A stretch of 32,000 bases of DNA, taken from assembly GCA_024275415.1 (NCBI GenBank), contig JAJRZD010000035.1, positions 30,001 through 62,000 of the forward strand, written 5' to 3'. How positions within the stretch are numbered: position 1 is the first letter of the stretch; the number at the start of each line of letters is the position of its first letter. The notes beneath the pieces were generated by a model that ran no database searches, was not told the origin of the DNA, and saw only the letters and a list, made by a program, of their open reading frames with translations. The DNA is from an archaeon (lineage in GTDB: Archaea; Asgardarchaeota; Thorarchaeia; Thorarchaeales; Thorarchaeaceae). The translations under genes and the position numbers were made by a program. This document shows, one piece after another, positions 8,618-30,913 of this stretch.

Positions 8618-9742
8618 ATGGATGTACACAAGATTGCGATAATCGGCGCAGGTCTCATGGGTTCAGGGATTGCTTATGTTTCAGCCGGAAACGGGTTTCA
8701 CGTGACATTAGTCGATGTGAACGAGCAGGCCCTTGAGGTGGGGATGGATCGCATCCGCAACGATGTCATGACCGGCGTTGACAAGAACAAGCTGAGCCTA
8801 AGCGAGGCGCAGGCACTTATGGGCAATCTGGCATCGACTACGAACATCGCTAACGCTGTGAAAGAAGCGGATCTTGTCATTTAAGCAATCTTTGAGAACA
8901 TGGAGGTGAAGAAGAAAGTATTCGCGGAATGTGACGCAAACGCGCCTTCCCACGCGATACTTGCAACGAACACATCTTCATTGAGCATCGACGAGCTGGC
9001 AAGTGCCACAAACAGGCCTGACAAGTTCATTGGCATGCACTACTTTTCGCCTGTGGCTGCGATGAAGCTTATTGAGATAGTCATTGGCGAGAAGACCAGT
9101 GAGGAAACGATACAAACCGCGATTGCAGTTGGTGAGAAGCAGGGCAAGGTTCCGGTGAAGGCCAAGAACAGCCCTGGTTTCATCGTGAACAGGATATTGA
9201 TGCCTGTCCTCCGTGAGGCAATTCTTCTCTATGAGCAAGGTGTTGCCACCAAGGAGGAGATTGATACGGCGATGACCGCTCACGCGAAATTCCCAGCTGG
9301 CCCGTTCACACTCGGTGACTTTGTTGGGCTCGATATAGCCTTTAACGCGATGAGTACTCTCTACAGGGAGCTCGGGGACTGTTTCAAGCCTCCAGATTCG
9401 CTAAAGGCATTAGTTGAGTCAGGAGCCATCGGCACCAAGTCGAAGAAAGGCTTCTACAAGTACGGTGGGGAGCAGGATGAGCCTGAGCCTCCGAAGGGTG
9501 TTGACCCACACTGGCTTGTGGACAGAATCACTATACCCGTCATCCGTGAGGCGATGATCCTTGTCGATGAAGGGATCGCTGAGAAGGATGCCATCGATAT
9601 GGCAATGAAGCTTGGTGCAAGTTTCCCAGCAGGTCCCTTCGAGATGGCGGAGAAGTACGGGCTTGACAAAGTGAAGGCAGAGATCCAGAAACTCTACGAG
9701 GAGCATGGGGAATGCTACTCCGTTCCAAAGATGCTTGGCTAA
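8618..9742 (+). pseudogene. 3-hydroxyacyl-CoA dehydrogenase (NAD-binding domain plus duplicated C-terminal domain) with one in-frame TAA (8882..8884)
   Basis: Motifs IIGAGLMGSGIA, DLVI*AIFENMEVKK (the conserved DLVIEA Glu is replaced by TAA), TNTSSL, GMHYFSP, PGFIVNR and two GPF-type C-terminal repeats. Confidence 0.88.
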
Positions 9743-16738: not shown

Positions 16739-16779
16739 GGTCGGGACTGGTGTATGCCGAGCATAAAATATCAGATTTT

Positions 16780-17715
16780 TCACTTTAAATGAATTTCCTC
16801 ACCATCAACTTCCACAATTCCATGTGAAACCATATCGTCTATGTGTTTCTCAAGCATATATTCCTCAAAGATCAGATACGCATCCATCGGAATCCTCGGG
16901 TATATTGTTGGCACTCTCGCTAGACTTCGGATTGTATTGATTCCCTGCCTGATGTTCTGGATAATCCTTTGTTCTCTCTCGTCGAAAATTGCTAAATACT
17001 GCAATAGACGTTCACGCAGGTTCGTTTCAATAGGATTTAGCAAATGGCTGCTAATTCCCACTTTTGGCTCAAGGGCCAAGATTCGCTGAATTGATTCCCT
17101 GAATTCATGGATATCGCTTACTGCATTTCCATACCACGGGCCAAACCGCGTTAGATCAATATCAACCAAGAATACGATGTCAGTCCCATTGATTCCAAAA
17201 ACAGTATGATCCTTTGTGTGCCCGGGAGCATGTACCGGAATAAGTTCTGTTTCTCCGAAGGAGATGGTTTTTCCACTTTCAAAGAAACCTGTCACTTGAT
17301 AATCCTCCACTACATGGGGGAGTCTTATGTCTATGAGTTCCCTCCAACTCGAATAATACTGGTGTCCCTTGATTCCATAGAACTCGACTGTTCCGTCTAA
17401 TGATTCTATTCCCTGTTTGGCAAGGGGATGACAAAGTAACTCACACTGAGATAGATTCATGATTTCTGCTGCATGCCCCTTGTGGTCTACATGGAAATGT
17501 GTTAGAATGATCTGGTCAATATCCTTCATAGCATGTCCGCAGCTTTGCACTGTCCTCTCGATGTTTCTAAGGGACGATCCTGCATCAACCAGTACGAGTA
17601 TCTCATCATCAATGAGAAGTGAATTCGCTTCGGGGAACCTTGCTCTATTCTCTCCTCTGATCAAGTGTACATTAGGGGCTATCTCAATGTGAGGCTCGTA
17701 TTCTTCTGTCATCAT
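16780..17715 (-). CDS. Metallo-beta-lactamase-fold hydrolase
   Basis: Motifs LVDAG, THFHVDH (HxHxDH), HAPGHT, a Asp after a beta-strand, and SSH. Confidence 0.9.
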   Translation of the reverse strand: MMTEEYEPHIEIAPNVHLIRGENRARFPEANSLLIDDEILVLVDAGSSLRNIERTVQSCGHAMKDIDQIILTHFHVDHKGHAAEIMNLSQCELLCHPLAKQGIESLDGTVEFYGIKGHQYYSSWRELIDIRLPHVVEDYQVTGFFESGKTISFGETELIPVHAPGHTKDHTVFGINGTDIVFLVDIDLTRFGPWYGNAVSDIHEFRESIQRILALEPKVGISSHLLNPIETNLRERLLQYLAIFDEREQRIIQNIRQGINTIRSLARVPTIYPRIPMDAYLIFEEYMLEKHIDDMVSHGIVEVDGEEIHLK

Positions 17716-17809
17716 TTAGAGCAAAATATGCATTGATGATAATCTTGTCGTATACATTGATATTGCACCAAGTCCAATGGCAGTTTGTAAATCGTATAAG
17801 GTGAACCGA

Positions 17810-19267
17810 ATGAGCAGTAGGATCTTTGCTGTATTTGATATTGGCACAACAGGTACTCGGTCAGTTCTTGTCGATGAGGAAGGTCGTGAGTTAGCAAAGG
17901 AGTATGAAGAATATCCTCCGACGCCGCGGGATCTCAAGGTTCACGAGCAAATTGCAGATGTGTATTGGCGAACTGCCTGTAATACCATGCAAAGAGCTTT
18001 AACCTCATTGGATGGGGGTGCTGATGCGATTGTCAGTGTAGTGGTGACAACCACACGAGATTGTGTCACGCCCGTTGATAAAGATGGGAACGCACTTGCA
18101 CCAACGGTGACTTGGGTTGACAATCGTTCGAGTCCCCGAAGCAAAGAGATGGCTGCTGAGATTGGTCCACGGAAGACTGTGAATAAGATAATGTGGTTCA
18201 TTGACGAGAGACCCGACCTCTTTGAAAATGCATACAAATTCGTGCATCTTGATGCTTTCATCAATAACAGGTTATGCGGTTCGCTTGTGAGTGAGCCTGC
18301 GAACGCGAGATACGGTCCTATAGACCATGAAACACTACGCTGGTCTGAGGATCTTTGTGAAACGACAGGAATACCCCTCGATAAGCTTGTAGATATTGTG
18401 AATCCGGGTGAGGTCATTGGGGAAATCACAAGGGATGCATCAAAGGCAACAGGACTGCGCAGTGGCACGACAGTCATTATGGGATGTGGGGATCAACAAT
18501 GTTCTGCATTGGGAACTGGTACGATCAGGACCGGGATCGTCAAGGCGACCACGGGTACAGGAACATTTGTCATCACTCACACAGAGGAATTCATTGAAGA
18601 CCCCTACGTCATGTTCTCAAATCCCTCTGCCATGCCCGGAAAGTGGATTCTCGAAGGTGCGATTCCAGGAACTGGTCTGGCATACAAATGGTATCGTGAC
18701 AACTATTGTGAAATCGAGGTGGCACAAGCGCTTCAAAGCGATAAGGATGTCTACGAGATAATCGAGTCGTCCGCCGCATCCATTCCTGCTGGCAGTGACG
18801 GACTGGTGGTCTTTCCATTCATGGCGTACAACAAAGGAATCTTCTACAATCTCGGATTTGGTCACACCAAATCACATGTTGCCAGGGCCATCATGGAGGC
18901 AAATGGGTACGGGATTCGGATGTATTGTGAGATGATTGAAGGGATGCTTGATATCGAATTCGACGAGCTACGGATTGATGGAGGTGGCTCCAACTCTCCG
19001 TTATGGCGGCAGATCCAAGCTGACTGCACGAACAAGACCGTTCTCCTTCCTCGTTCTAGAGATTCCACTGCGATTGGTGCAGCAATTTTGGGGACAGTCG
19101 GTTCTGGAGTCTATGGGAGTTTCGAAGAAGCCGTTTCAAACATGGTCCATATCGTAGAACGCAGGGCACCGATCCCAGAGAATCATGCAATCTATGAACA
19201 GCAATATACAATCTACAACAAGTTGCTCATTGCAGAGATGCCAGCACTCATCGAACTCACATCTTGA
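17810..19267 (+). CDS. FGGY-family carbohydrate kinase (glycerol kinase / xylulokinase-like)
   Basis: Motifs FDIGTTGTR, WVDNRS, GDQQCSALG, TTGTGTF and DGGGSNSPLWRQIQAD. Start at ATG 17810 after GGTGA. Confidence 0.9.
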   Translation: MSSRIFAVFDIGTTGTRSVLVDEEGRELAKEYEEYPPTPRDLKVHEQIADVYWRTACNTMQRALTSLDGGADAIVSVVVTTTRDCVTPVDKDGNALAPTVTWVDNRSSPRSKEMAAEIGPRKTVNKIMWFIDERPDLFENAYKFVHLDAFINNRLCGSLVSEPANARYGPIDHETLRWSEDLCETTGIPLDKLVDIVNPGEVIGEITRDASKATGLRSGTTVIMGCGDQQCSALGTGTIRTGIVKATTGTGTFVITHTEEFIEDPYVMFSNPSAMPGKWILEGAIPGTGLAYKWYRDNYCEIEVAQALQSDKDVYEIIESSAASIPAGSDGLVVFPFMAYNKGIFYNLGFGHTKSHVARAIMEANGYGIRMYCEMIEGMLDIEFDELRIDGGGSNSPLWRQIQADCTNKTVLLPRSRDSTAIGAAILGTVGSGVYGSFEEAVSNMVHIVERRAPIPENHAIYEQQYTIYNKLLIAEMPALIELTS

Positions 19268-19363
19268 ATCAATCATATCTGCCGAAAGCCTTGTATTGCC
19301 GTGGGGACTGCATATGACAGTCTTCAGTAGCCAACCGAACGTATTGCTGGACAACACGGAGTC

Positions 19364-21025
19364 TTGAGCATATTGACCGAGTTTGATGTGATTGTTATTG
19401 GCGGTGGAAGCACTGGTACTGCTGTTGCACGGGACTGTGCTATGCGTGGTTTGAAGACCCTTCTTTTGGAGCGTGATGATATTGCATCTGCGACTGTTGG
19501 GACTTGTGCTGGCATGATAAGTTCTGGGTTCAAGTACTACCATGAGCCCGATATTATGGACTTGTGCTCTCACGAAGTGGTTCATCTCAAGCACATAGCC
19601 CGACATATCGTAGCTAAACTTCCAATCCTGTTCCCATTGATGGACTTGAGCGAAATCTCATCTGGCGGCAAAGGGATGGAAGAATATGAGAAGCGCGTGC
19701 AGGAACGGGGTGTTCCTCCTGTTCTAATCCTGACTCCTGAGGCATCGCGTGAGATTGAACCGTCTCTCCATCCAGAGCTGATTGCAAGTGGTTATGTCGA
19801 GGAGTTCTTTATTGACCCTTTCCGGCTTTGCGTCCTACAGGCAAAAGATGCTGAACAGCATGGAGCAACAATCCGTACTTATTGTGAAGTCACAGCAATC
19901 GATATTCGAAATGGTGCAGTCCACACTGTGACCTATTTTAACAGGATGACTGGCACTCTTGAAACGGTTGAAGCCAAGGTAGTCATTAGCGCTACTGGTC
20001 CATGGGCGAGTGAGATCGCACGATTAGCAGGTATTTCATTAGAGCTTCGGCTGAACAAGGGCGCTCATGTCATCTTGGATCGGCGAGTCACCAATGTTGG
20101 AATTTCCACGCGAGCAGTTGATGGAAGATGGGTCTATCTGTTCCCGCATGAGAATACCACACTCATAGGGACTACTGCACTTGATACTTGGGATAACCCT
20201 GATGAGCTTGTTACCTCTCAGGACGAGATCGAGTATCTTCTACGTAGTTTTGAATTCGTTGTCCCGTCTGTCCGCGAGGCTCGAATCATCCGGACCATGG
20301 AAGGTGTCCGACCGATGGCCCCCGTCTGGAAAGTTCCAGAAGGTGAAGTTACTCGGGGTTATGAGATTATCGACCATGGACAGGATGGAGTTTCCGGTTT
20401 CTACTCATTCATTGGTGGAAAGCTGGTGATGTGCAGACATATGGCAGAAGCCGTCACTGATATTGTATGTGAGCGACTTGGTGTGACGGGTTCTTGTGAA
20501 ACTCATATCAAACCTCTACCAGGGATGTCTGAGGAGGTCGATGTGTTGATGCTAGCAGAGAAATATGGTGTGCCGTCGCATGCCCTTGAACGCCTCAAGG
20601 CCAGAAGAGGCTCCGAATTGGTTGAGATTCTTGAGATGACCCGTGAACACCCTGAGTGGACGAACATGGTGTGCATATGCGAACCTGTGATGGATGCTGA
20701 GATCCGCTATGCTATCCGAACCGAATATCCCCAAACATTGAACGACCTGCGAAGAAGGGTTCGATTGGGAACTGGCCCCTGCCAAGCAACATTCTGTACA
20801 TTCAAAGCTGCCTCAATCATGGCAGAGGAACTAGGTCTTACTGGAAGTCAGACCCATTCGGAGATTGTTGATTATCTATCTGAACGTTGGAAAGGAAAGC
20901 GACCCCCCCTACGAGGCGCAGCACTGGCTCAAGAGGAGATTGTCAATGGGATATATGCGTGTGTTGGAAATCTTGAGCAAACTGTCATTGATTACGAGCC
21001 AAAGCCATGGGAGGAGATTCGTTAG
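19364..21025 (+). CDS. glpA: Anaerobic glycerol-3-phosphate dehydrogenase subunit A-like
   Basis: Motifs VIGGGSTG, DCAMRG, GVRP and GGKL, plus a C-terminal BFD-like CICE...RVRLGTGPCQATFC. Confidence 0.88.
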   Translation: MSILTEFDVIVIGGGSTGTAVARDCAMRGLKTLLLERDDIASATVGTCAGMISSGFKYYHEPDIMDLCSHEVVHLKHIARHIVAKLPILFPLMDLSEISSGGKGMEEYEKRVQERGVPPVLILTPEASREIEPSLHPELIASGYVEEFFIDPFRLCVLQAKDAEQHGATIRTYCEVTAIDIRNGAVHTVTYFNRMTGTLETVEAKVVISATGPWASEIARLAGISLELRLNKGAHVILDRRVTNVGISTRAVDGRWVYLFPHENTTLIGTTALDTWDNPDELVTSQDEIEYLLRSFEFVVPSVREARIIRTMEGVRPMAPVWKVPEGEVTRGYEIIDHGQDGVSGFYSFIGGKLVMCRHMAEAVTDIVCERLGVTGSCETHIKPLPGMSEEVDVLMLAEKYGVPSHALERLKARRGSELVEILEMTREHPEWTNMVCICEPVMDAEIRYAIRTEYPQTLNDLRRRVRLGTGPCQATFCTFKAASIMAEELGLTGSQTHSEIVDYLSERWKGKRPPLRGAALAQEEIVNGIYACVGNLEQTVIDYEPKPWEEIR

Positions 21026-22363
21026 ATGGATGCAGATTATGATATTGTTGTGATTGGTGGTGGGTTGGCCGGCCTCACAGCAGGGATATCAGCGGCCCAG
21101 ATGAATGCTAATACGCTGGTCGTTCGTAAAGGAGAGGGTGCTACCTCATTATCCTCTGGGGCTTTGGATATTGCCGGATATCTACGCGGCGGTGAAACCC
21201 CTTTTCTTACTCCTGAGGAAGGAGTCGCTGCATTGGCCCATGTTTATCCATTTCATCCCTATTCAGTGCTTGAGAGCATTCCTTCTCTTGGTCTGAAAGA
21301 GATCGTTTCGTGGCTCAAAGACATACTCGCTGGTTCTCCGTCTGCAATGATTGGCAGCCACGACACAACAACCATGGCATTGACAATTCTAGGCACAAAA
21401 AAACCGACTTGTCTTGTTCAGAGAACAATGCATACTACTCGCTTGGATAACACTGATGAAACGCTTCTTTTTGCAGGGATTAAAGGACTGGCGGACTTCA
21501 ATCCGTCCACTGCATCAAAAGCGTTGATGGAATCCGTTATTGCTGGTGAAACTGGTCCTCACAAGATTGTGCATACTCTACTGGAATGTAGTCCCTTTCG
21601 CCAACCCTCCAATATCTCACCAGTCGAACTAGCACGATACATCGAAACCGAGGATGGGTTGGATAGGATCATAAAAGAGCTTCAGCATTGTACTGAGCAG
21701 ACCGGAACAACTCTAATCGCTCTGCCCCCAATTCTTGGTTTGGTCAATCCTATTGAAATAAAGAAGCGAATCGAGGAAGAAACTGGGACAGAGATTTTCG
21801 AGCTGTTATCTTTTCCCCCCTCTGTCCCAGGCTACCGGTTACAAAGGTCTCTTGAAGCATCGTTGAAGAAAGCAGGAGGGACTCTTCTGGTCGGTCATGA
21901 GGCTGTTTCATTCAAGAAGCAGGAAGGCAAGATCATTGATATCACTTTGAAGAGCCCTCGCAGGACATTCAATACACACCCGAAAAGTGTCATTCTGGCT
22001 ACTGGCAAGTTTGTTGGAGGTGGACTTGCAGGGAATCGAACAGGGCTTAGAGAAACCGTCTTCGATCTACCTGTTCTGGATGGGACGCGCCAATCTGTTC
22101 AAGATGTCAGACCATCTCATTTGACACGAGTTGTCCCATTGCACAAGGAAGGTCACCCTCTCTTTGAATGCGGTATTGGGTTCGACACCCGCTTCAGGCC
22201 AATCGATGTCAAAGGCGACATCTTCGCATCGAATCTCTTTGCTGCGGGTTCTGTCCTTTGCGGATACAACTATCCCGTAGAAAAGAGCGGGTTGGGAGTA
22301 GCGCTTGTCACTGGAAGAATATGTGGTGTTCATGCAGCGGAGAATGTCACAGGAGGGAACTAA
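21026..22363 (+). CDS. glpB: Anaerobic glycerol-3-phosphate dehydrogenase subunit B-like
   Basis: Motifs IGGGLAG, SSGALD, ELLSFPPSVPGYRL, LATGKFVGGGL and AAGSVLCGY...SGLGVA. Confidence 0.9.
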   Translation: MDADYDIVVIGGGLAGLTAGISAAQMNANTLVVRKGEGATSLSSGALDIAGYLRGGETPFLTPEEGVAALAHVYPFHPYSVLESIPSLGLKEIVSWLKDILAGSPSAMIGSHDTTTMALTILGTKKPTCLVQRTMHTTRLDNTDETLLFAGIKGLADFNPSTASKALMESVIAGETGPHKIVHTLLECSPFRQPSNISPVELARYIETEDGLDRIIKELQHCTEQTGTTLIALPPILGLVNPIEIKKRIEEETGTEIFELLSFPPSVPGYRLQRSLEASLKKAGGTLLVGHEAVSFKKQEGKIIDITLKSPRRTFNTHPKSVILATGKFVGGGLAGNRTGLRETVFDLPVLDGTRQSVQDVRPSHLTRVVPLHKEGHPLFECGIGFDTRFRPIDVKGDIFASNLFAAGSVLCGYNYPVEKSGLGVALVTGRICGVHAAENVTGGN

Positions 22364-23596
22364 GTGGACGAAGAAGAAGCCTATGCACATGTCAGGAATA
22401 CACTCAAAGAAGAGCGAATGATGCCGTTCTCCACCTCTGAAATGGAAGTGGTTCGATCCGTAGGACAATGTATCAACTGCGGTACTTGCCTCAATCACTG
22501 CCCTGTAACGCGTGCTGTGGGAGTTGAGAGATTCACAGGCCCTCGGGGAATAGCTGTGGAACTTAGTCGTTCCCCTCCCGAGTATTGGTCTAGTACCGAC
22601 AGAATCTACCTTTGTACGGGCTGTGGTACATGCCGGGAAGTATGTCCAAAAAATGTTGACATACCGAATGTCGTGAATCTTATGAGGCGACGCATCTTCT
22701 CCCAGCGTCCTGATCTCGTTCCTCAAAGCCTACATCAGCAGAACGAGATTCTTCGAAAGCATAATCTTGCATTTGTTCCATGGGATGACCCTGACGAGAA
22801 AGCAGAAAGCAGGAATATGCGTCTTGAGCGACTCGACCTACCTTTCATCAAGGACAAGATTCGAAAGGGAGCAGAGGTACTTTTCTATCCTGGCTGTCAG
22901 GCTGAAGAACGTGCTCAGGAGGTTCGAGAGGCAGCAAAAATAATCCTTGAACGGTTCAATGTTGATTATACTCTCGTTGAGAAAATGACCTGCTGTAGCC
23001 TGCCAGCAATACTGGTGGGTGACATGGAAAAGTCCATCGAGCTGTCTACCATTCTCAAGAAGCAGATTGATGACCTTGGAGTTAAGAAGATAGTCACAAC
23101 TTGCGCAGGCTGTACATCGAACCTTAATGAGATTGCAGCACGAAACAATTGGGAAATTCCTGTCTATCATATCCTTGAGTTTCTAGTCGAAGACATAGGT
23201 GTTCATGAGGTATCTAAAGCACTCTCCCCCATGGATGACCATACTGTGAGGGTAACTGTTCATGATCCTTGTCACCTCATCCGCCATACATCCCGTCGGG
23301 TTCTCGAGTATGCCCATCGCCTACTGAATGCAATACCTGATGTGGAGGTGGTCGAGTCAAGTGCACACGACCTGTGTTGTGGAGGTGGCGGATTGGTCGG
23401 AAGGCATTCTCCTGACGTGTCGCGTGTGATAGTGAAAGAAAATATCCGAGCAATCAAAGAAACCTCAGCTGAGCGTATAGTAACTCCCTGCCCTCTTTGC
23501 ACTGCGCAGATTGAGGAATCCCTTTTCAGAGATGGTAGTGACATCGAAGTGGATGATCTAACTGTATTCATCGCTCAGAGTTTTGAAGGAGGCTGA
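22364..23596 (+). CDS. glpC: GlpC-like Fe-S subunit (two 4Fe-4S motifs plus CCG domains)
   Basis: Motifs CINCGTCLNHCP, CTGCGTCREVCP, CCSLP, HDPCH and CCGGGG. Directly follows glpB. Confidence 0.82.
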   Translation: MDEEEAYAHVRNTLKEERMMPFSTSEMEVVRSVGQCINCGTCLNHCPVTRAVGVERFTGPRGIAVELSRSPPEYWSSTDRIYLCTGCGTCREVCPKNVDIPNVVNLMRRRIFSQRPDLVPQSLHQQNEILRKHNLAFVPWDDPDEKAESRNMRLERLDLPFIKDKIRKGAEVLFYPGCQAEERAQEVREAAKIILERFNVDYTLVEKMTCCSLPAILVGDMEKSIELSTILKKQIDDLGVKKIVTTCAGCTSNLNEIAARNNWEIPVYHILEFLVEDIGVHEVSKALSPMDDHTVRVTVHDPCHLIRHTSRRVLEYAHRLLNAIPDVEVVESSAHDLCCGGGGLVGRHSPDVSRVIVKENIRAIKETSAERIVTPCPLCTAQIEESLFRDGSDIEVDDLTVFIAQSFEGG

Positions 23597-23600
23597 TGGG

Positions 23601-25028
23601 TTGATTGGCGCCAAACGAAAGACAATTGCAGCAGAACGAATTGCTGGTGTCATAGGGAACGATTTTGTCACAATTCACGAAACCGATGCGTTGTTGACCT
23701 CTGTCGATGCATGGCCGTTGAGCCTAGCAAAGATCAGGGCTGGAGAGTTAATCCCCTTTGCAGATATCGTGGCATATCCCCATAATGTGGAGGAGGTTTC
23801 CCAGATTCTTGCTATATGCAGTGAGCTTGAGATTCCCGTGACTCCAGTCGGAGGCGGTGCAGGAAGCTGTGGGGGAATCATCCCTGTATACGGAGGCCTT
23901 CATCTAGACCTGAAGCGTATGAATAGGATCATTGGCATAGATCATGACTCGATGGTCGTTCGGGTCGAGGCTGGAGTAGTTGGGATTGATTTGGAGGAAC
24001 ATGTCAACCGTTTCGGTTATACCACTGGTCACACGCCCACTTCGTTGAGAGCATCCAATGTGGGAGGCTTTCTTGCAACACGGTCTGGGGGGTCGATGTC
24101 ATCACTTTACGGGAAGATTGAGGACATGACGTTGGGTCTCCAAGTTGTTATCCCAGATGGCTCTATCATCGAATGCAAGGCTGTTCCGCGCCATTCGGTA
24201 GGTCCTGATCTAAAGCAGGTGTTCATTGGTTCCGAAGGTACGTTGGGTGTTATCACAGAAGCCACGTTGCAACTGTTCCCGATACCAGAAGAACGACGAT
24301 TCAGGAGCATGTGCTTTCCTGACATAACCAGTGGGCTGGACGCAATACGAAGCATCTTCCGAGCTGGGATTCGTCCCTCCGTGGTCAGATTGTATGATGA
24401 AACTGACACCGCAATGTCGATAGCACCACACTTTGAGGTGGATGACGAGTCCTGCATGTTGCTTCTTGCATTCGACGGCTCAAGAGAACGAGTGGCCCTC
24501 GATGAACAGCAATCAGCAAATATCTGTCAGGCGCACGGTGCGCAGGACTATGGTGATGGGCCATCTCGGAGATGGTGGGAGCATCGATATGACATGTACT
24601 ATCCATCGAAATTCCTGACATCAGGCTATTCGATTGCCGATACCATTGATGTGGTTGCAACCTACGACCGGCTGGAGAGAGTCTATTGGTCAATGAAAGA
24701 GGCGATGGAATCGGAAGGTGCCATTGTTCTCTGTCATTTTTCACATATGTATCTACATGGCGGAAGCATGTACATGATATTCTTCTCCTCACAACCTGAT
24801 GCCGAGTCCTTGTGGTCCACATACGAGCGTATCTGGCATGCGGGGATTGAGGCATGTCACAAAGAAGGTGGAGTAATGAGTCATCAGCACGGAGTAGGTC
24901 TTACCCGTAGCACATACACTGAGGATGAACTGGGCAGTAGTTTCCATGTTCTTAAGATGATAAAACAAGCTCTTGACCCGAAAGGTATCATGAACCCCGG
25001 AAAGCTGGGCATGGGGGTACAGAAGTGA
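23601..25028 (+). CDS. FAD-linked oxidoreductase, alkyl-dihydroxyacetone-phosphate synthase (AGPS)-like
   Basis: Motifs PVGGGAG, GGFLATRSGG..S..YGKIED, GSEGTLGVITE, RLYD, CHFSHMY..GGSMY, SHQHGVG and LDPKGIMNPGK. TTG at 23601 lies 8 nt after GGAGG; the ORF is open from 23583. Confidence 0.82.
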   Translation: MIGAKRKTIAAERIAGVIGNDFVTIHETDALLTSVDAWPLSLAKIRAGELIPFADIVAYPHNVEEVSQILAICSELEIPVTPVGGGAGSCGGIIPVYGGLHLDLKRMNRIIGIDHDSMVVRVEAGVVGIDLEEHVNRFGYTTGHTPTSLRASNVGGFLATRSGGSMSSLYGKIEDMTLGLQVVIPDGSIIECKAVPRHSVGPDLKQVFIGSEGTLGVITEATLQLFPIPEERRFRSMCFPDITSGLDAIRSIFRAGIRPSVVRLYDETDTAMSIAPHFEVDDESCMLLLAFDGSRERVALDEQQSANICQAHGAQDYGDGPSRRWWEHRYDMYYPSKFLTSGYSIADTIDVVATYDRLERVYWSMKEAMESEGAIVLCHFSHMYLHGGSMYMIFFSSQPDAESLWSTYERIWHAGIEACHKEGGVMSHQHGVGLTRSTYTEDELGSSFHVLKMIKQALDPKGIMNPGKLGMGVQK

Positions 25029-26149
25029 TGGATTCAGAACAATATGCCGACCAGATACGCCTCTGTGCATCGTGTCCAAAACTATGTCGTCATGTATGCC
25101 CGACTTTTTCTGCTTGGCGATCTAATGCCCCAACGCCACACGGTCGTGCCATCTTGCTCCACTATGAGGCAGTGGGAGCACGAAACCTTGATGATCGAGC
25201 GGTCGAAGTGATTTATCAGTGCCTACAATGCAGTCATTGTTTGACTTGGTGTATCCCCGAGGTCGATATTGCAAGCATCGTTGAGATGACACGTGAACGG
25301 CTGGTTTCAGAGGATAGATATCCGTCAGGTCTGGACAGACTAAAACAATCTGTGGACGCAAACCATAACCCATTTGGTGAGCCCCATGGGACTAGAACCT
25401 CTTGGTATGTGACTGAGGGAGGCGAGGTAACACGGATTGTCTATTTCACTGGGTGCACAGCGTCATACAGAGAACAGTCCATTGCTGTGGCCACAGTCGA
25501 ACTCCTACGTTCCATCGGCTATCAGGTATTAGTCTTGGATGATGAGTGGTGTTGCGGGTCTCCCTTGCTCAGGACCGGCTTTGTTCCCGATGCATTGGTG
25601 CAGGCTGAACATAACGTTGAGGTGCTCAACTCAATTGACGCCGAAGCGATAGTCGCCACTTGTCCGGGGTGCTACAAAACATTGGTGAAAGACTATCCCG
25701 AACACGGACTGTCCATTCGCATTCCTGTAAGACACATCTCCGATCTATTGGATGAAAAGCTATCTGCCCTCGATGAGAGTGACTTCTCCGAGGTCATTAC
25801 ATATCACGACCCGTGCCATCTAGGACGGCATTCTGGAGTGTACGATGCTCCTCGCGAAGTGATCAGGAAGATTTCAGGGGTTGAGGTTTCTGAGATGAAA
25901 CGGAACCGAGAGAACGCAACCTGCTGTGGGAATGGAGCAGGGCTTCGTACGTTGTTTCCAGATGCAGCGAAACGAATCGGAAGCTCTAGGATACAAGACG
26001 CTAAAGATGTAGGCGCGAGGGTCTTGGTGACCTCCTGTCCGTTCTGCAAGAATATGCTCAAGGGCCAGGCTGATGAGTCGCTAGATGTGTTCGACTTGCC
26101 TGAATTCGTACTTGGAATGACCCAACGCCTCAATCAGAAAGATGAATAA
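25028..26149 (+). CDS. Second (Fe-S)-binding CCG-domain oxidoreductase subunit (GlcF/HdrD-like)
   Basis: Motifs CASCPKLCRHVCP, CLQCSHCLTWC, CCGSP, YHDPCHLGR, CCGNGAG and TSCPFC. ATGA overlap with the FAD enzyme. Confidence 0.88.
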   Translation: MDSEQYADQIRLCASCPKLCRHVCPTFSAWRSNAPTPHGRAILLHYEAVGARNLDDRAVEVIYQCLQCSHCLTWCIPEVDIASIVEMTRERLVSEDRYPSGLDRLKQSVDANHNPFGEPHGTRTSWYVTEGGEVTRIVYFTGCTASYREQSIAVATVELLRSIGYQVLVLDDEWCCGSPLLRTGFVPDALVQAEHNVEVLNSIDAEAIVATCPGCYKTLVKDYPEHGLSIRIPVRHISDLLDEKLSALDESDFSEVITYHDPCHLGRHSGVYDAPREVIRKISGVEVSEMKRNRENATCCGNGAGLRTLFPDAAKRIGSSRIQDAKDVGARVLVTSCPFCKNMLKGQADESLDVFDLPEFVLGMTQRLNQKDE

Positions 26150-26170
26150 GCCAAATGAGGTAATCACACA

Positions 26171-27289
26171 ATGACTACAATGGATCACGACGAAGCACTG
26201 TACCTGAAGATTAGATTGTTACTTGAAGGTGCTGTCATCCCAGAAGGATTCTCAAGGGGACGTAAGGGAGGAGCTGGCCCTGTGGGAGGTAGATACTTCA
26301 TGCTCCCTAATGGAAGTCTGTGTGGGATTCCCATCCGCACAAGTGAACAGGCTCGAATCTTCAATTCCTCGAACTTGGAACCACTTGAAGATGATAAGTG
26401 GCGGTACGATTCGAAGTACATCGTAACAGAGATTCCCACTCCAGAAATCTATCAGCATTCAACAAAAGATGGAATCGACTATGGCAAGATTGCTCTTCTT
26501 CATGGAACCGAATGTCTAGCCACAACAGTATTCCAGTCGTGTAAATACTGGTCTACAGGTGACCAATGCAAGTTCTGCACGATACCCACCTCGTTTTTGA
26601 GCGGGAATACAATCAAAGAGAAGACGCCTGAGCAGATTGCAGAGGTCGTCAAGCAAGGGTTGAAGGATGGTATTATCAAACATGTCTTGCTCACGACCGG
26701 AACCTCTGAGGGTGAGGATATGGGAATTGAGCGGCTGGTCAGTATTGCAGAAGCAATCAGGGAGTTCAGCAACATTCCTATCGCAGTACAGTTCGAGCCA
26801 CCGGAGGACACTTCGTATCTGAAGAAATTGGCTGATGTAGGTGTGAATGCAGTCGGCATCCATCTTGAGAGTGCCGATGAAAAGATACGTTCCGAGATGT
26901 GTCCTGGCAAGTACAGGTACGGCTCTTTTGAGCTGTACAATAGGACTTGGGATGCTGCAAGAAAGTACTTCAAGAAAGGTGATGTTTCGACATTTCTTCT
27001 CTTTGGTCTCGGAGAGAATCTAGAACAAACGATAGATCTGTGTGAGTACCTTGCTCAAAAAGGCATTCTTCCAGTTGTTACTCCATTCAGGCCCGCTCCC
27101 GGAAGCCAGCTTGCAGACTTTGTTCCGCATTATGTCGGACGGCTAGACGAGTCCGTTGAGTTTTATAAGAAACTGGGAACAATCCTTTTCAAACATGGCT
27201 TGGATCCTAAGAGCACTTCTGCCGGATGCTCACGATGTGGTGGCTGTACGCCGATGCAGGATGCATATAACTGGGCAAGCCATCAATGA
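26171..27289 (+). CDS. Radical SAM protein resembling the MSMEG_0568 family
   Basis: LHGTECLATTVFQSCKYWSTGDQCKFC gives a long-spaced Cx8Cx2C. C-terminal AGCSRCGGC and N-terminal GRKGGAGP are also present. Confidence 0.78.
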   Translation: MTTMDHDEALYLKIRLLLEGAVIPEGFSRGRKGGAGPVGGRYFMLPNGSLCGIPIRTSEQARIFNSSNLEPLEDDKWRYDSKYIVTEIPTPEIYQHSTKDGIDYGKIALLHGTECLATTVFQSCKYWSTGDQCKFCTIPTSFLSGNTIKEKTPEQIAEVVKQGLKDGIIKHVLLTTGTSEGEDMGIERLVSIAEAIREFSNIPIAVQFEPPEDTSYLKKLADVGVNAVGIHLESADEKIRSEMCPGKYRYGSFELYNRTWDAARKYFKKGDVSTFLLFGLGENLEQTIDLCEYLAQKGILPVVTPFRPAPGSQLADFVPHYVGRLDESVEFYKKLGTILFKHGLDPKSTSAGCSRCGGCTPMQDAYNWASHQ

Positions 27290-27312
27290 CACTAAAGTAG
27301 AGGGTCTGGACA

Positions 27313-27813
27313 GTGAATGACTTTGTTCTTTCCCATGAAGAGATCCGCATCATAGAATTCTCAGAAGAGGATGCCGAGGAGATATCGCAACTATTCCGAG
27401 AGGTCTGGCCACAGGCTACTGAGTACCCCGAGGGATGGAGGAAGAAGCGGATGTACTCGGCTGAACAGATCATCGATGATATGCGGAATGGATACCATTA
27501 CTTTGGATCACGATTACAGGGACGAATCGTTGGTGTCTATAAGGCACTAATTACCGACAAGGGTCTCTTTGGGGAGCATCAAGCCGTAAGTGCGGAATAC
27601 CGGAACTCTGGACTTGCCTCTGCAATGTATGTACAGTTTGCTGAATACGGGAAAGCCCATGGATGCAAAAGGAACTATTGCAATATCCTAGTTGGTCATA
27701 AACCGAGTGAGCGACTGATGAAGCACTTTGGATTCTGCCCGTGGGGTGAGCCCTATGAGCAGTATCCGGGGATGCAGGTTCAGATGTATGAACGTCCTTT
27801 GGACGAGGAATGA
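27313..27813 (+). CDS. GNAT-family N-acetyltransferase
   Basis: AVSAEYRNSGLAS (motif A, R/QxxGxA) and a downstream KHFGF. Confidence 0.82.
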   Translation: MNDFVLSHEEIRIIEFSEEDAEEISQLFREVWPQATEYPEGWRKKRMYSAEQIIDDMRNGYHYFGSRLQGRIVGVYKALITDKGLFGEHQAVSAEYRNSGLASAMYVQFAEYGKAHGCKRNYCNILVGHKPSERLMKHFGFCPWGEPYEQYPGMQVQMYERPLDEE

Positions 27814-27880
27814 CCACAACAATATACCGGAATACTCATAGATGTTACAAGTTACAATACTCGCTTACATCCGTTGAGGT

Positions 27881-29557
27881 ATGCTGCTGATGAATCTATT
27901 CTCTATCTTGGTGGACGGAAAAGAGATTGATACTGGGAACTATGTGACCTTTCCTGATATGAATCGTGTAATAGAAGACCCTGGGTTAGCCATTGCACTA
28001 CAGATGCGGAGCATACCCTTTTTTCAAAGACTGATGATTTCTCGGGCCACACGTTTGATTCCGGAGAAATCTCCTGAACTTCGATATCTGAAAGACTTTG
28101 TGAAGGCGCATGGCGTTCCCAATTACTCGAAAGACGAGATTGATGAGGTTGCCTTTGCTCAGGTCGCTATCGCACGTGAATCGGACATCAATGAGGCGCT
28201 TGACGCAGGGGTTCGTGACCATGGTCATCTTTTCAATCCTTTCATGGTCGAGGGAATGGGAGTCACCCTTGACGAGCGTGTCGAGGCGTTATATCAGGCT
28301 GGGCTTGCAGTGAAGGATCATTTCAAAGAGGTTCGCGACATATCTGTTAAGGAGGGAGTGCCCATTGGCACATTCAACTGGACTTGGGAGATGTTCACTG
28401 AGTACTTGGAGAAAGAAACCTTTGAGCTATGGGGCAAAAGCCTCGATATTGTAGAAGCACCTGGCCGGGACGGAGGTAAGAACTTCAGATTTCGTGAACC
28501 TTATGGAGTGGCCTGTCTGTTCACACCGTATAATTCTCCACTGGCTTTGGGAATTCTCAGCATCACATCATCGATTCTGGCAGGTAATGCTACTATTCTG
28601 AAGCCTCCAGCAAAAGTGCCCCTCAGCACGATTATACTCGGTAAGATATTCATGGAGCGATTCTTGGACATGGGGCTTCCTTCAGCCATGATCCAAGTCA
28701 TCACAGGCAGTGGGAAGAGGCTGATGAACCGATTCATGAGCGATTCTCGAGTTGGAACCATCGTGTGGTATGGAGATAGTGACAGAGGGCTTCAGTTGTG
28801 GTCAGATGCAGTCGCTCGCAGAATACAGATGGCCCCCGAACTTGCTGGAAGTGATGCAAGTCTTGTCTGGGGTAAGGATGTGGACTTGAGTTTTGCAGCA
28901 AAGATGATTGTGAAAGGACGATATTTGGGAAGTGGACAGGCGTGCATGGCTGTGAAACGACTACTTGTCCAAGATACGCTGTATAAGGATCTCCTTCACT
29001 TGGTGATTGAAGAAGCGGAAACTCTTAAGGTAGGTCTCCCTTCAAACCCCGATGTCACACTCCCACCAGTAGGGCTGACTGCATTGTACCTCCTCATAGA
29101 TCAGATGAAAGACGCTCAGGCGAAAGGAGCTATGGTCGAAACAGGTGGTTATCGGATGAATTATCTTGGAGAAGAAGACCCTGCTGGATTGTTCTACAAA
29201 CCTACAATCTTGACGAATGTCACACTTGATATGCGAGTCATGAAGGAAGAGGTCTTCGCACCAGCACTGCCAGTCATGAGCGTGTCCAGTGTCGAGCAAG
29301 CCATATCGATTGCAAATGCCACTCGGTTCGGTCTGCGTTCATCAATCTTTACAGACGACTCCAATGTCAGGATGGCGTGGGTAAAGGGAATACAAGCTGC
29401 TGGAGTAAACGTTGGGCAGGATCATCTCTATTTCGATCCACATATGCCTCATCTTGGAGGCTATAAGGACTCGGGGATAATTGGTGGCAAGTACTTTCCT
29501 GAGATGCTTACTCGGATGAAGTATGTACATACGGGCCCCGGAATTCAACTTGAATGA
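27881..29557 (+). CDS. Aldehyde dehydrogenase family protein (atypical)
   Basis: Motifs REPYGV...TPYNSP, KPPAKVP, ELAGSD (catalytic Glu), SGQACMA (catalytic Cys), EEVFAP and ANATRFGL. Alternative start at ATG 27890. Confidence 0.9.
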   Translation: MLLMNLFSILVDGKEIDTGNYVTFPDMNRVIEDPGLAIALQMRSIPFFQRLMISRATRLIPEKSPELRYLKDFVKAHGVPNYSKDEIDEVAFAQVAIARESDINEALDAGVRDHGHLFNPFMVEGMGVTLDERVEALYQAGLAVKDHFKEVRDISVKEGVPIGTFNWTWEMFTEYLEKETFELWGKSLDIVEAPGRDGGKNFRFREPYGVACLFTPYNSPLALGILSITSSILAGNATILKPPAKVPLSTIILGKIFMERFLDMGLPSAMIQVITGSGKRLMNRFMSDSRVGTIVWYGDSDRGLQLWSDAVARRIQMAPELAGSDASLVWGKDVDLSFAAKMIVKGRYLGSGQACMAVKRLLVQDTLYKDLLHLVIEEAETLKVGLPSNPDVTLPPVGLTALYLLIDQMKDAQAKGAMVETGGYRMNYLGEEDPAGLFYKPTILTNVTLDMRVMKEEVFAPALPVMSVSSVEQAISIANATRFGLRSSIFTDDSNVRMAWVKGIQAAGVNVGQDHLYFDPHMPHLGGYKDSGIIGGKYFPEMLTRMKYVHTGPGIQLE

Positions 29558-30913
29558 ATGGCGAATATGATGAATCCCGATAAAAGTGGTAATAATGGAC
29601 CTTGCGATGCAGTACGAAATACTGCTGTTTCTGTTTTGTCCATTTACGATCAGAAGCGGAGGTCAATCCCATCAATTCTCAGAGATTACAGAGAGGAGTC
29701 CGGACTTTCTCAGACAAATTACGCACAGGTCTATTTTCTTACAGCTTCCATTGTAAAACACCTGAACACAATTGATTATGTGTTACATCGTTCTTTCAAG
29801 GAAATCAATCCACGAAACCTATCACCACGAATACGTAATCTGCTTAGGATTCTCACCTATCAAGCCCATTGGATAAAGGTATCATCTAAGAACCTCATCA
29901 AGACCATTCCGGACGAGTTGAGTGGTTTTCTTCCATCGATACGAAAGATGTTCTCTCTCAACTTGGAGCGGATTTACGAGAAACTGCCAAAGATGACCCG
30001 ATTGAGTCTTCAATATTCACATCCGACTTTCATAGTAGAAACACTGCTCTCCAATATGAGCGAGGCTGAAGCCATCTCACTGATGCGAGCAAACAATGGT
30101 GCTAGCACTTCTTATTTCCGTGTGAACAATCTCGTTTCTACACCTCCGAATGTGTTAGAGGAGTTAGGTATTCTTGGTGTCGAGATGAAAGAAGATGCTG
30201 ACGTACACGGCCTCTATCGGATAGAATCAGGGCTTCACACTCTAGTCCAATCCGCGGCATTCAAGGAGGGGGCTGTACTGATTCAGGACAAGGCAAGTGT
30301 CCTTGCTGTCAAAGCTCTCTCTCCTCAACCTTCTGAGTTCGTTTGGGATGCATGTGCAGCTCCGGGTATGAAGACACATCTCATTTGGGAATCCATGAAA
30401 GGTACCGGAAGACTTGTGGCCACCGACCTGAGTCCCAAGCGTATCTCACTGGCACGCGAAAGAGCTGGCTCCATTGGACTGGATGAAGTGGAATGGATTC
30501 ACGAGGACGCCTGCTTGTGCCCGATACAGGACGCGGACAAAATTCTCATCGACGCACCATGCACATCCACAGGAATTCTGAGAAGTCATCCTTCTTACAA
30601 ATGGAAACTGAACAAGAAGACATTGTTCTCAATAATGGCGATACAGAACAAACTATTGGAGGGCATCATCTCTGGCTATCGTGAGAATCCGGGCACTGAG
30701 ATTGTGTATTCTGTATGCTCGATTCTTCCTCACGAAGGGGAGAGTCAGATAGATACTATTCTAGACACATACAATGTCGAATTGATAGACTTTCCTGGGC
30801 CTGGGACTACTGGATATCCTGGCTTCACATGTTCTGCCGGAGTTCGAAGGCTCTTTCCATCAACCCATGACACTGATGGGTTCTTCATCGCAAAACTCCG
30901 AATTACGCGGTGA
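29558..30913 (+). CDS. rsmB: RsmB/NOP2/Sun-family RNA m5C methyltransferase with a NusB-like N-terminus
   Basis: Motifs IQDKAS, DACAAPGMKT, DAPCTSTG, YSVCSI and TDGFFIA. Confidence 0.88.
   Translation: MANMMNPDKSGNNGPCDAVRNTAVSVLSIYDQKRRSIPSILRDYREESGLSQTNYAQVYFLTASIVKHLNTIDYVLHRSFKEINPRNLSPRIRNLLRILTYQAHWIKVSSKNLIKTIPDELSGFLPSIRKMFSLNLERIYEKLPKMTRLSLQYSHPTFIVETLLSNMSEAEAISLMRANNGASTSYFRVNNLVSTPPNVLEELGILGVEMKEDADVHGLYRIESGLHTLVQSAAFKEGAVLIQDKASVLAVKALSPQPSEFVWDACAAPGMKTHLIWESMKGTGRLVATDLSPKRISLARERAGSIGLDEVEWIHEDACLCPIQDADKILIDAPCTSTGILRSHPSYKWKLNKKTLFSIMAIQNKLLEGIISGYRENPGTEIVYSVCSILPHEGESQIDTILDTYNVELIDFPGPGTTGYPGFTCSAGVRRLFPSTHDTDGFFIAKLRITR

Follow-up and report, generated by a model that had tools for sequence, protein, structure and literature searches.

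A GlpABC-associated gene cluster with an AGPS-like, YgcU-type flavoprotein and an iron-sulfur partner in a Thorarchaeales archaeon

Alkyldihydroxyacetonephosphate synthase (AGPS, also ADPS; EC 2.5.1.26) is a flavoprotein of the vanillyl-alcohol oxidase (VAO) type, represented in the Protein Data Bank (PDB) by 2uuu and 4bby. It carries an N-terminal domain found in AGPS only, whose gate-keeping helix controls access to the C16 alkyl channel (PMC3509576). Glycerol use through GlpK and GlpABC, as in Escherichia coli and Haloferax volcanii, has been predicted in the Asgard lineages Atabeyarchaeia and Freyarchaeia with no mention of an extra enzyme (PMC11291895), and most Thorarchaeota genes named glpK are carbohydrate-kinase homologs (PMC6737245). 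Here we describe a locus in 32,000 nucleotides of Thorarchaeales DNA (assembly GCA_024275415.1, contig JAJRZD010000035.1, positions 30,001 to 62,000 of the forward strand), this whole stretch being referred to as the window. In it, genes for an FGGY-family kinase, GlpA, GlpB and GlpC are followed by genes for an AGPS-like flavoprotein and an iron-sulfur (Fe-S) protein, called FeS2 below. E. coli K-12 encodes a full-length homolog of the flavoprotein, YgcU (30% identity, 199 bits, E 1e-62), which has the RLYD, Tyr and HHHGIG motifs. Our preferred reading, which we rate a little better than an even bet, is that the flavoprotein and FeS2 work alongside GlpABC in a soluble catabolic operon, as a flavin/Fe-S dehydrogenase of the YgcU type whose substrate is a small phosphorylated compound of the glycerol or ketol kind.

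The flavoprotein and its iron-sulfur partner

By sequence profile AGPS is a closer match to the flavoprotein than D-lactate dehydrogenase (D-LDH) or GlcD, and by fold slightly so. In phmmer comparison with PDB sequences it matched Dictyostelium AGPS (218 bits), guinea-pig AGPS (201), D-LDH (165) and LctD (148), and family profile A1 (32 family members) scored 416 and 351 bits against the AGPS chains, 254 against D-LDH and 220 against glycolate oxidase. An AlphaFold model of the protein (pLDDT 87.8) retrieved AGPS first in Foldseek (TMq 0.89, TMt 0.76-0.79), with D-LDH near (TMq 0.85, TMt 0.89). An earlier annotation of this DNA made from its letters alone, hereafter the sequence-only reading, had called the protein AGPS-like rather than GlcD- or D-LDH-like, and these scores uphold that call; the two motifs that it named, HMYLHGGSMY and SHQHGVG, are both present. 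The nearest relatives of the flavoprotein are all proteins of Thorarchaeota metagenome-assembled genomes (MAGs), at 65-83% identity.

Two residues of the AGPS catalytic set are retained. In HMMER alignments, with the guinea-pig positions anchored by the mutant chains 4bca (Y578F) and 4bc7 (R419H), Tyr391 (GGSMYM) aligns with the catalytic tyrosine (guinea-pig Y578, Dictyostelium Y508) and Arg263 (VVRLYD) with guinea-pig R419, equivalent to Dictyostelium R352; both columns are invariant in alignment A1. His428, Gln429 and His430 within SHQHGVG fall on the SHHHGVG loop of AGPS, with Gln at the His616 position in place of the full HHH loop. The HQH form is found in the window protein, in all aligned Thorarchaeota relatives and in Asgard family f12; the remaining Asgard families and the majority of bacterial homologs have HHH, and bacteria of the Planctomycetes-Verrucomicrobia-Chlamydiae (PVC) group read NEHH. 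A tree of the prokaryotic flavoprotein homologs, rooted on a D-LDH-type paralog, left the deep nodes unresolved.

The protein departs from AGPS in other respects. Its chain is shorter (475 aa, against 584-658 aa for AGPS), and position 6 of profile A1 aligns with residue 90 of the Dictyostelium chain, position 13 with residue 167 of the guinea-pig chain; by profile alignment, length and TMt, the AGPS-only N-terminal domain with its gate-keeping helix is absent. Also absent is an insert of approximately 20-40 residues that follows the arginine in AGPS. The column of Dictyostelium R447, a residue reported to be important for catalysis, reads Ser, Thr or Gly, then Lys, Pro, Thr or Ser, in Thorarchaeota. 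An equivalent of R447 (YLRD) is kept only in Chloroflexota homologs, which also have an AGPS-like N-terminus (NLRWWGWG). No list of AGPS tunnel residues was found in the literature.

FeS2 carries ferredoxin-type cysteines at C14, C17, C21 and C25 and at C66, C69, C72 and C76 (CxxCxxxC/CxxCxxC motifs), and all eight are at least 90% conserved across an alignment of Asgard and bacterial orthologs, in which two PVC partners lack several of them. These two proteins are encoded in Kiritimatiellae of the Verrucomicrobiota (L055:11387-12385 and L056:11398-12537), downstream of NEHHGVG homologs of the flavoprotein, and align with FeS2. In all 14 loci from other Asgard families, and in 16 of the 29 bacterial loci, the flavoprotein gene is followed by a gene of the FeS2 type. 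Structure prediction supports binding of the flavoprotein to FeS2: the predicted complex reached an ipSAE of 0.93, with a best control of 0.00, and showed at least 94% contact agreement over three runs and a partner pLDDT of at least 91. The ipSAE mark applied is passed by 58 of 80 solved complexes, as well as by 2 of 110 mismatched pairs, counts that hold roughly here since our own alignments were used. In the predicted complex, the ferredoxin domain of FeS2 (residues 9-78) is docked against the FAD-binding domain of the flavoprotein and against its 330-340 loop.

A flavoprotein paired with a CCG-domain Fe-S protein is a recurrent two-subunit dehydrogenase design. The same genome contains at least five more such adjacent pairs, and FeS2 shares 33-38% identity with several of the partners in them, 29% with those on contig C99 and 26% with GlpC. 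The further pairs on contigs C9, C62, C99 and C116 have FAD_binding_4 flavoproteins of 580-650 aa with different motifs (GGHPHGIG, GGRAYSIG), and constitute a large unexplored paralog set of two-subunit dehydrogenases.

A dedicated electron partner accompanies the AGPS-like flavoprotein in several lineages: a CCG protein in Asgard archaea and many bacteria, GlcE-like and CCG (GlcF-like) subunits after the Myxococcales homolog, and an electron-transfer flavoprotein (ETF) in E. coli. This recurrence argues that the AGPS-like branch may carry out net redox chemistry rather than the redox-neutral exchange of AGPS.

Cluster conservation and candidate function

The order enoyl-CoA hydratase, metallo-beta-lactamase (MBL)-fold hydrolase (on the minus strand), kinase, GlpA, GlpB, GlpC, flavoprotein, FeS2, radical SAM protein and GNAT acetyltransferase is kept in approximately 45 Thorarchaeota loci, all of them kin, with proteins 41-85% identical; the arrangement is conserved and not due to chance. 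Across the Asgard archaea, a flavoprotein match at E <= 1e-60 occurs in 172 of 301 sampled genomes. Families f7, f19 and f13 have kinase-GlpA-GlpB-GlpC-flavoprotein-FeS2. In the Loki-type family f9 the order is flavoprotein-FeS2-kinase with an alpha/beta hydrolase after the kinase, in family f2 it is kinase-flavoprotein-FeS2, and family f12 has the flavoprotein-FeS2 pair alone. Radical SAM, GNAT, aldehyde dehydrogenase (ALDH) and MBL genes were all absent from the cluster in the 14 loci examined from these other families. In Loki-type loci the gene immediately before that of the flavoprotein, and co-oriented with it, encodes a conserved protein of approximately 498 aa with no Pfam match (L097:7420-8916 (+), and at the same position in L098, L102 and L105).

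Bacterial homologs stand in comparable settings. Actinomycetota loci combine a GlpD-like gene, the flavoprotein and a GlpK-like kinase, Chloroflexota loci the flavoprotein and a GlpD-like gene, and PVC bacteria (Kiritimatiellae) an XylB-type kinase and the flavoprotein within a DeoR/PfkB/KduI/GFO sugar island. Myxococcales loci add a DAGK/YegS lipid kinase: L053:9887-14506 (Myxococcaceae), and likewise L058, L059, L063, L067, L073, L077 and L078, encode an HHH AGPS-like flavoprotein, a CCG Fe-S protein and a DAGK_cat/YegS_C kinase, with a GlcE-like FAD_binding_4 protein between the flavoprotein and CCG genes in L053, L058, L059 and L063. This cluster is distinct from the MXAN_1676 AGPS/FAR-GNPAT ether-lipid operon of the literature (FAR, fatty-acyl reductase; GNPAT, acyl-dihydroxyacetone-phosphate (acyl-DHAP) acyltransferase).

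The conserved core is an FGGY kinase, the AGPS-like flavoprotein and an electron-transfer partner, often with GlpABC or GlpD. The linkage of the flavoprotein to a kinase and a glycerol-3-phosphate dehydrogenase, on which the sequence-only reading had built its pathway, thus recurs in distant Asgard families and bacterial phyla. The kinase partners of the flavoprotein are of the FGGY family in f7, f19, f13, f9 and f2, XylB-type in PVC bacteria and GlpK-like in Actinomycetota, and the contexts are of the sugar or glycerol-phosphate type, which points to a small soluble substrate. A glycerol-phosphate link is suggested because GlpABC or GlpD adjoins the flavoprotein in Asgard archaea, Actinomycetota and Chloroflexota.

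The window kinase scores 223 on the NCBIfam model for LsrK, 207 on XylB, 202 on GntK and 152 on GlpK (TIGR01311, cut-off 590), in agreement with the carbohydrate-kinase nature of most Thorarchaeota glpK genes. Its best PDB matches are LsrK (153 bits) and Thermococcus GlpK (134 bits), and a better GlpK-like gene is present elsewhere in the genome (contig C106, 390 bits on the GlpK model). GlpA and GlpC are divergent archaeal forms that score below the cut-offs of their models (TIGR03377, 417 bits against 553; NF008369, 125 bits against 278). Their membership in GlpABC is indicated by the match of GlpB to its equivalog model, the BFD [2Fe-2S] domain in GlpA, the ferredoxin and two CCG domains in GlpC, and the gene order A-B-C. 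GlpA and GlpB are single-copy in the genome.

On our preferred reading, the cluster would be an operon for breaking down glycerol, or a small polyol or ketose related to it, with two flavin/Fe-S dehydrogenases. The FGGY kinase may phosphorylate the small substrate, and GlpA, GlpB and GlpC, judged by family membership, would oxidise sn-glycerol-3-phosphate to dihydroxyacetone phosphate (DHAP), with electrons passing to the Fe-S/CCG subunit GlpC. The flavoprotein and FeS2 would act as a heterodimer, and a ketol phosphate resembling DHAP would be activated on the flavin, at its alpha-carbon, by the AGPS-type Arg/Tyr/His set. In contrast to AGPS, the enzyme would keep the two electrons and pass them to the [4Fe-4S] clusters of FeS2. 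Candidate substrates of the flavoprotein are DHAP, the other glycerol-phosphate enantiomer and a ketose phosphate; oxidation of DHAP to hydroxypyruvaldehyde phosphate, or of sn-glycerol-1-phosphate, is speculation only. The radical SAM, GNAT and ALDH genes would be lineage-specific neighbours rather than core steps.

Several observations weigh against this assignment of a small-substrate dehydrogenase. AGPS is redox-neutral, so conservation of its catalytic set would be just as compatible with chemistry of a non-redox kind. The PVC partners are an exception to the electron-partner rule: they have lost most of the cluster and CCG cysteines and so cannot carry electrons, and they match no Pfam family. 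The window kinase is 26% identical to E. coli YgcE, and orthology between them is not clear. Some relatives of the cluster have lipid-type neighbours, namely the DAGK/YegS kinase in Myxococcales and the alpha/beta hydrolase in Loki-type loci, and the Thorarchaeota operon lies between beta-oxidation genes. The literature offers no demonstrated substrate for any of these flavoproteins, and no paper on the function of ygcU was found.

These lipid-type and beta-oxidation neighbours would suit the cleavage of ether lipids, the route that the sequence-only reading had put forward. In that route the kinase would yield an alkyl-glycerol-3-phosphate, GlpABC would oxidise C2 to give alkyl-DHAP, the AGPS-like enzyme would free the alcohol, or oxidatively the aldehyde with electrons passing to FeS2, and ALDH and beta-oxidation would take up the chain. 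The retained AGPS-type Arg and Tyr, the standing of AGPS as the nearest solved enzyme, and a gene order from kinase through glycerol-3-phosphate dehydrogenase to flavoprotein that fits the chemistry are consistent with it; moreover, water is a further possible reaction partner of the enzyme-DHAP intermediate of AGPS. However, the gating domain and the post-Arg insert are absent, R447 is not conserved and His616 is replaced by Gln, and an AGPS-type exchange needs no obligate Fe-S partner. The kinase resembles LsrK, XylB and GntK more closely than GlpK, the characterised FGGY kinases known to us all act on small sugars or polyols, and related clusters encode transporters and enzymes of sugars. 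Neither ALDH nor the radical SAM and GNAT genes belong to the conserved core, and ALDH resembles small-aldehyde dehydrogenases. Because archaeol is etherified at C2, this diether is not oxidisable there, and C2 oxidation would probably be workable on mono-ethers only. The comparisons thus lent the cleavage route no specific support, and we consider it quite improbable. A biosynthetic role, in which the flavoprotein would use DHAP from GlpABC to make alkyl-DHAP, or an ether or ester related to it, for unusual membrane lipids of Asgard archaea, is the least credible of the alternatives and in our judgement highly improbable. In its favour are the conserved catalytic residues of AGPS, the AGPS name that JGI pipelines give to the Thorarchaeota proteins (the NCBI label is "FAD-binding oxidoreductase"), and the Chloroflexota homologs with the NLRWWGWG N-terminus and YLRD, which also adjoin a GlpD-like gene. 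Nevertheless, the cluster has no acyl-DHAP acyltransferase or fatty-acyl reductase gene, the gating domain is missing, the loop reads HQH and a redox partner is present; in addition, a study of the evolution of the plasmalogen pathway reports no evidence for it in Archaea (bioRxiv 10.1101/2025.10.10.681575).

The flavoprotein and FeS2 could also form a D-lactate, glycolate or other 2-hydroxyacid dehydrogenase of the GlcD/GlcF type, either unrelated to GlpABC or linked to it through a methylglyoxal bypass (DHAP to methylglyoxal to D-lactate) with the MBL-fold protein as glyoxalase II. The GlcD/GlcF-like architecture speaks for this, as do the D-LDH fold, nearly as near as that of AGPS, the MBL-fold hydrolase as a conserved neighbour in Thorarchaeota, and lactaldehyde dehydrogenase as the best model for ALDH. 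The active site reads otherwise: of the metal triad of D-LDH (mouse LDHD H398, H405 and E442) only H398 is kept, H405 being replaced by Tyr391 and E442 by Gln429, and a separate paralog on contig C73 of the same genome carries the canonical H..H and EHGIG motifs. The flavoprotein reaches 215 bits on the GlcD model TIGR00387, against a cut-off of 568, and other Asgard families have neither MBL nor ALDH genes at the cluster. Given the scores nearer to AGPS, the AGPS residues, the broken triad and the canonical paralog, the D-LDH and bypass reading was down-weighted and appears very unlikely. Finally, the cluster may consist of two unrelated modules, with the kinase and GlpABC serving glycerol and the flavin/Fe-S dehydrogenase another substrate, brought together by shared ancestry or by a common electron acceptor. 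Families f9 and f12 have the flavoprotein-FeS2 pair without GlpABC, and tight spacing also joins ALDH to an unrelated RsmB gene. Set against this, the flavoprotein stands beside a glycerol-3-phosphate dehydrogenase independently in Actinomycetota, Chloroflexota and several Asgard families, and the kinase accompanies it also in loci that lack GlpABC. We regard the two-module arrangement as unlikely, though it would be the first alternative to consider after the small-substrate dehydrogenase.

Gene run and neighbouring genes

The run of nine genes from the FGGY kinase to ALDH, all on the plus strand, was confirmed by the open reading frame (ORF) list, Pfam and NCBIfam, in agreement with the order, orientation and labels first assigned to it (Table 1). 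The kinase ORF opens at 17777, and its likely start is the ATG at 17810, which is preceded by GGTGA. The junctions 21025/21026, 22363/22364 and 29557/29558 of the sequence-only reading are exact; an ATGA overlap that it placed at 25025-25028 is wrong, as bases 25025-25030 read GTGATG and the flavoprotein and FeS2 genes overlap by GTGA (or TGATG). The gap between the kinase and glpA is 96 nt, and the gene for the rRNA methyltransferase RsmB (29558-30913) abuts ALDH as tightly as the operon genes abut one another, so abutment alone is weak evidence for a common function. A scan for promoters and terminators gave counts equal to the shuffled expectation, with bacterial models applied to an archaeon, and is therefore uninformative.

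Table 1. Genes of the cluster, with positions in the window and supporting matches.
Feature	Position	Strand	Evidence
MBL-fold hydrolase	16780..17715	-	divergent from kinase; Pfam Lactamase_B 48 bits
FGGY-family carbohydrate kinase, not GlpK-type	17810..19267	+	FGGY_N + FGGY_C
GlpA-like FAD subunit of anaerobic glycerol-3-phosphate dehydrogenase, BFD-type [2Fe-2S] domain	19364..21025	+	DAO, DAO_C, Fer2_BFD
GlpB subunit	21026..22363	+	TIGR03378 215 bits > cut-off 174; abuts glpA
GlpC-like Fe-S subunit, 2x[4Fe-4S] ferredoxin domain + two CCG domains	22364..23596	+	CCG x2 111 bits, Fer4_8
AGPS-like (YgcU-type) FAD flavoprotein, 475 aa	23601..25028, ORF opens 23583	+	FAD_binding_4, FAD-oxidase_C
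FeS2, dedicated Fe-S partner, two-cluster ferredoxin domain + two CCG domains	25025..26149	+	CCG x2 128 bits, Fer4_8
Variant radical SAM protein, MSMEG_0568-like family	26171..27289	+	TIGR04043 278 bits (cut-off 303.7), NF045502 158.6 bits (cut-off 125)
GNAT acetyltransferase	27313..27813	+	Acetyltransf_1 40 bits
Aldehyde dehydrogenase (ALDH), 558 aa, N-terminal extension ~90 aa	27881..29557	+	Aldedh 264 bits

The divergent MBL gene lies at the same place in approximately 30 Thorarchaeota loci and is a conserved neighbour in that family only. The radical SAM-GNAT pair is likewise found in Thorarchaeota loci only. The radical SAM protein falls below the cut-off of TIGR04043 and above that of NF045502, the model for the variant radical SAM domain. 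Its cluster motif is Cx9CxxC (CKYWSTGDQCKFC) in place of CxxxCxxC, and its C-terminus has CSRCGGC. The GNAT protein does not match the companion model of the MSMEG_0568 family, and the multi-gene context of MSMEG_0565-0572 is absent.

The best NCBIfam models for ALDH are lactaldehyde (best), succinic-semialdehyde and glyceraldehyde dehydrogenases, all with scores far under the cut-offs, and its best PDB matches include GAPN and glyceraldehyde dehydrogenases. A same-strand ortholog is present in approximately 17 Thorarchaeota loci, an opposite-strand paralog of 40% identity in approximately 13, and neither in three. The radical SAM, GNAT and ALDH genes were rejected as pathway members, being missing from the cluster in other Asgard families; ALDH in particular, which the sequence-only reading had taken as a pathway step, lies outside the conserved core and best matches enzymes of small aldehydes. 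In L009, one of the opposite-strand loci, a 676-aa fusion of acyl-CoA dehydrogenase, SCP2 and MaoC hydratase (16040-18070 (+)) lies between ALDH and RsmB, and several of these loci show a comparable gap before RsmB.

Two further features were observed upstream of the cluster. A 3-hydroxyacyl-CoA dehydrogenase gene at 8620-9742 (+) is broken by an in-frame TAA at 8882-8884 (..ADLVI-stop-AIFENMEVKK); a Rossmann N-terminus (MDVHKIAIIGAGLMGSG) precedes the stop, and the Pfam match is limited to the part beyond it. Relatives presumably read Glu (VIEA) at this position, and the TAA stems from a nonsense mutation or from an error in sequencing. A GH38 alpha-mannosidase gene at 13904-16738 (+) lies between the enoyl-CoA hydratase and MBL genes, and looks like a lineage-specific insertion because those two genes are adjacent in other Thorarchaeota loci.

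Significance and comparison with known systems

The genes described here are already present in public MAGs. The AGPS-like flavoprotein module is widespread, occurring in Asgard archaea and several bacterial phyla and with a relative in E. coli K-12, yet no assigned function was found for any member; literature on ygcU/ygcE, Rv2251/agpS and archaeal AGPS yielded no functional, biochemical or genetic study of the prokaryotic family. Should these flavoproteins use the AGPS catalytic set for net oxidation and deliver the electrons to Fe-S or ETF partners, their reaction would be of a type new to this branch of the VAO superfamily, and it would add an unrecognised step to the anaerobic glycerol or polyol metabolism of the closest archaeal relatives of eukaryotes. 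Ether cleavage, if it proved true, would provide an oxygen-independent counterpart of alkylglycerol monooxygenase in Asgard archaea and some bacteria, recycling sedimentary mono-ether lipids. The pipeline name "alkyldihydroxyacetonephosphate synthase" is in itself no evidence for eukaryote-type ether-lipid synthesis or degradation in Asgard archaea.

Among known systems, AGPS shares with the flavoprotein the two-domain VAO-type fold and the Arg and catalytic Tyr, and the HHH loop with most of its relatives. It differs in the gating domain, the post-Arg insert and R447, all lacking from the window protein, and in the HQH loop found here; the window protein in turn has an Fe-S/CCG subunit, which AGPS lacks, and its cluster contains neither a FAR nor a GNPAT partner. 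GlcDEF and the D-lactate dehydrogenases with GlcF/HdrD-like subunits share the pairing of a FAD_binding_4 flavoprotein with a subunit of one Fer4 and two CCG domains, to which Myxococcales relatives add a GlcE-like third. Their His-His-Glu metal site is not kept in the window flavoprotein, and scores on the models for GlcD and GlcF fall well short of the cut-offs. The GlpK-GlpABC pathway of E. coli and H. volcanii, and that predicted in Asgard archaea, has GlpA, GlpB and GlpC in the same order beside an FGGY kinase. It differs from the window locus in that the kinase here is not of the GlpK type (152 against a cut-off of 590) and a second flavin/Fe-S enzyme stands outside the published pathway.

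The E. coli ygc cluster (ygcNOP-QR-S-U-W, yqcE, ygcE) also holds a sugar transporter of the major facilitator superfamily, a short-chain dehydrogenase/reductase and a regulator of the glycerol-3-phosphate antiterminator family. It uses an ETF (YgcQR) and the ETF-quinone oxidoreductase-like YgcN instead of a CCG subunit, has no GlpABC, and encodes a kinase 26% identical to that of the window. Like the window, it combines a YgcU-type flavoprotein, an FGGY kinase and an electron-transfer system, and it offers a tractable system in which to find the substrate.

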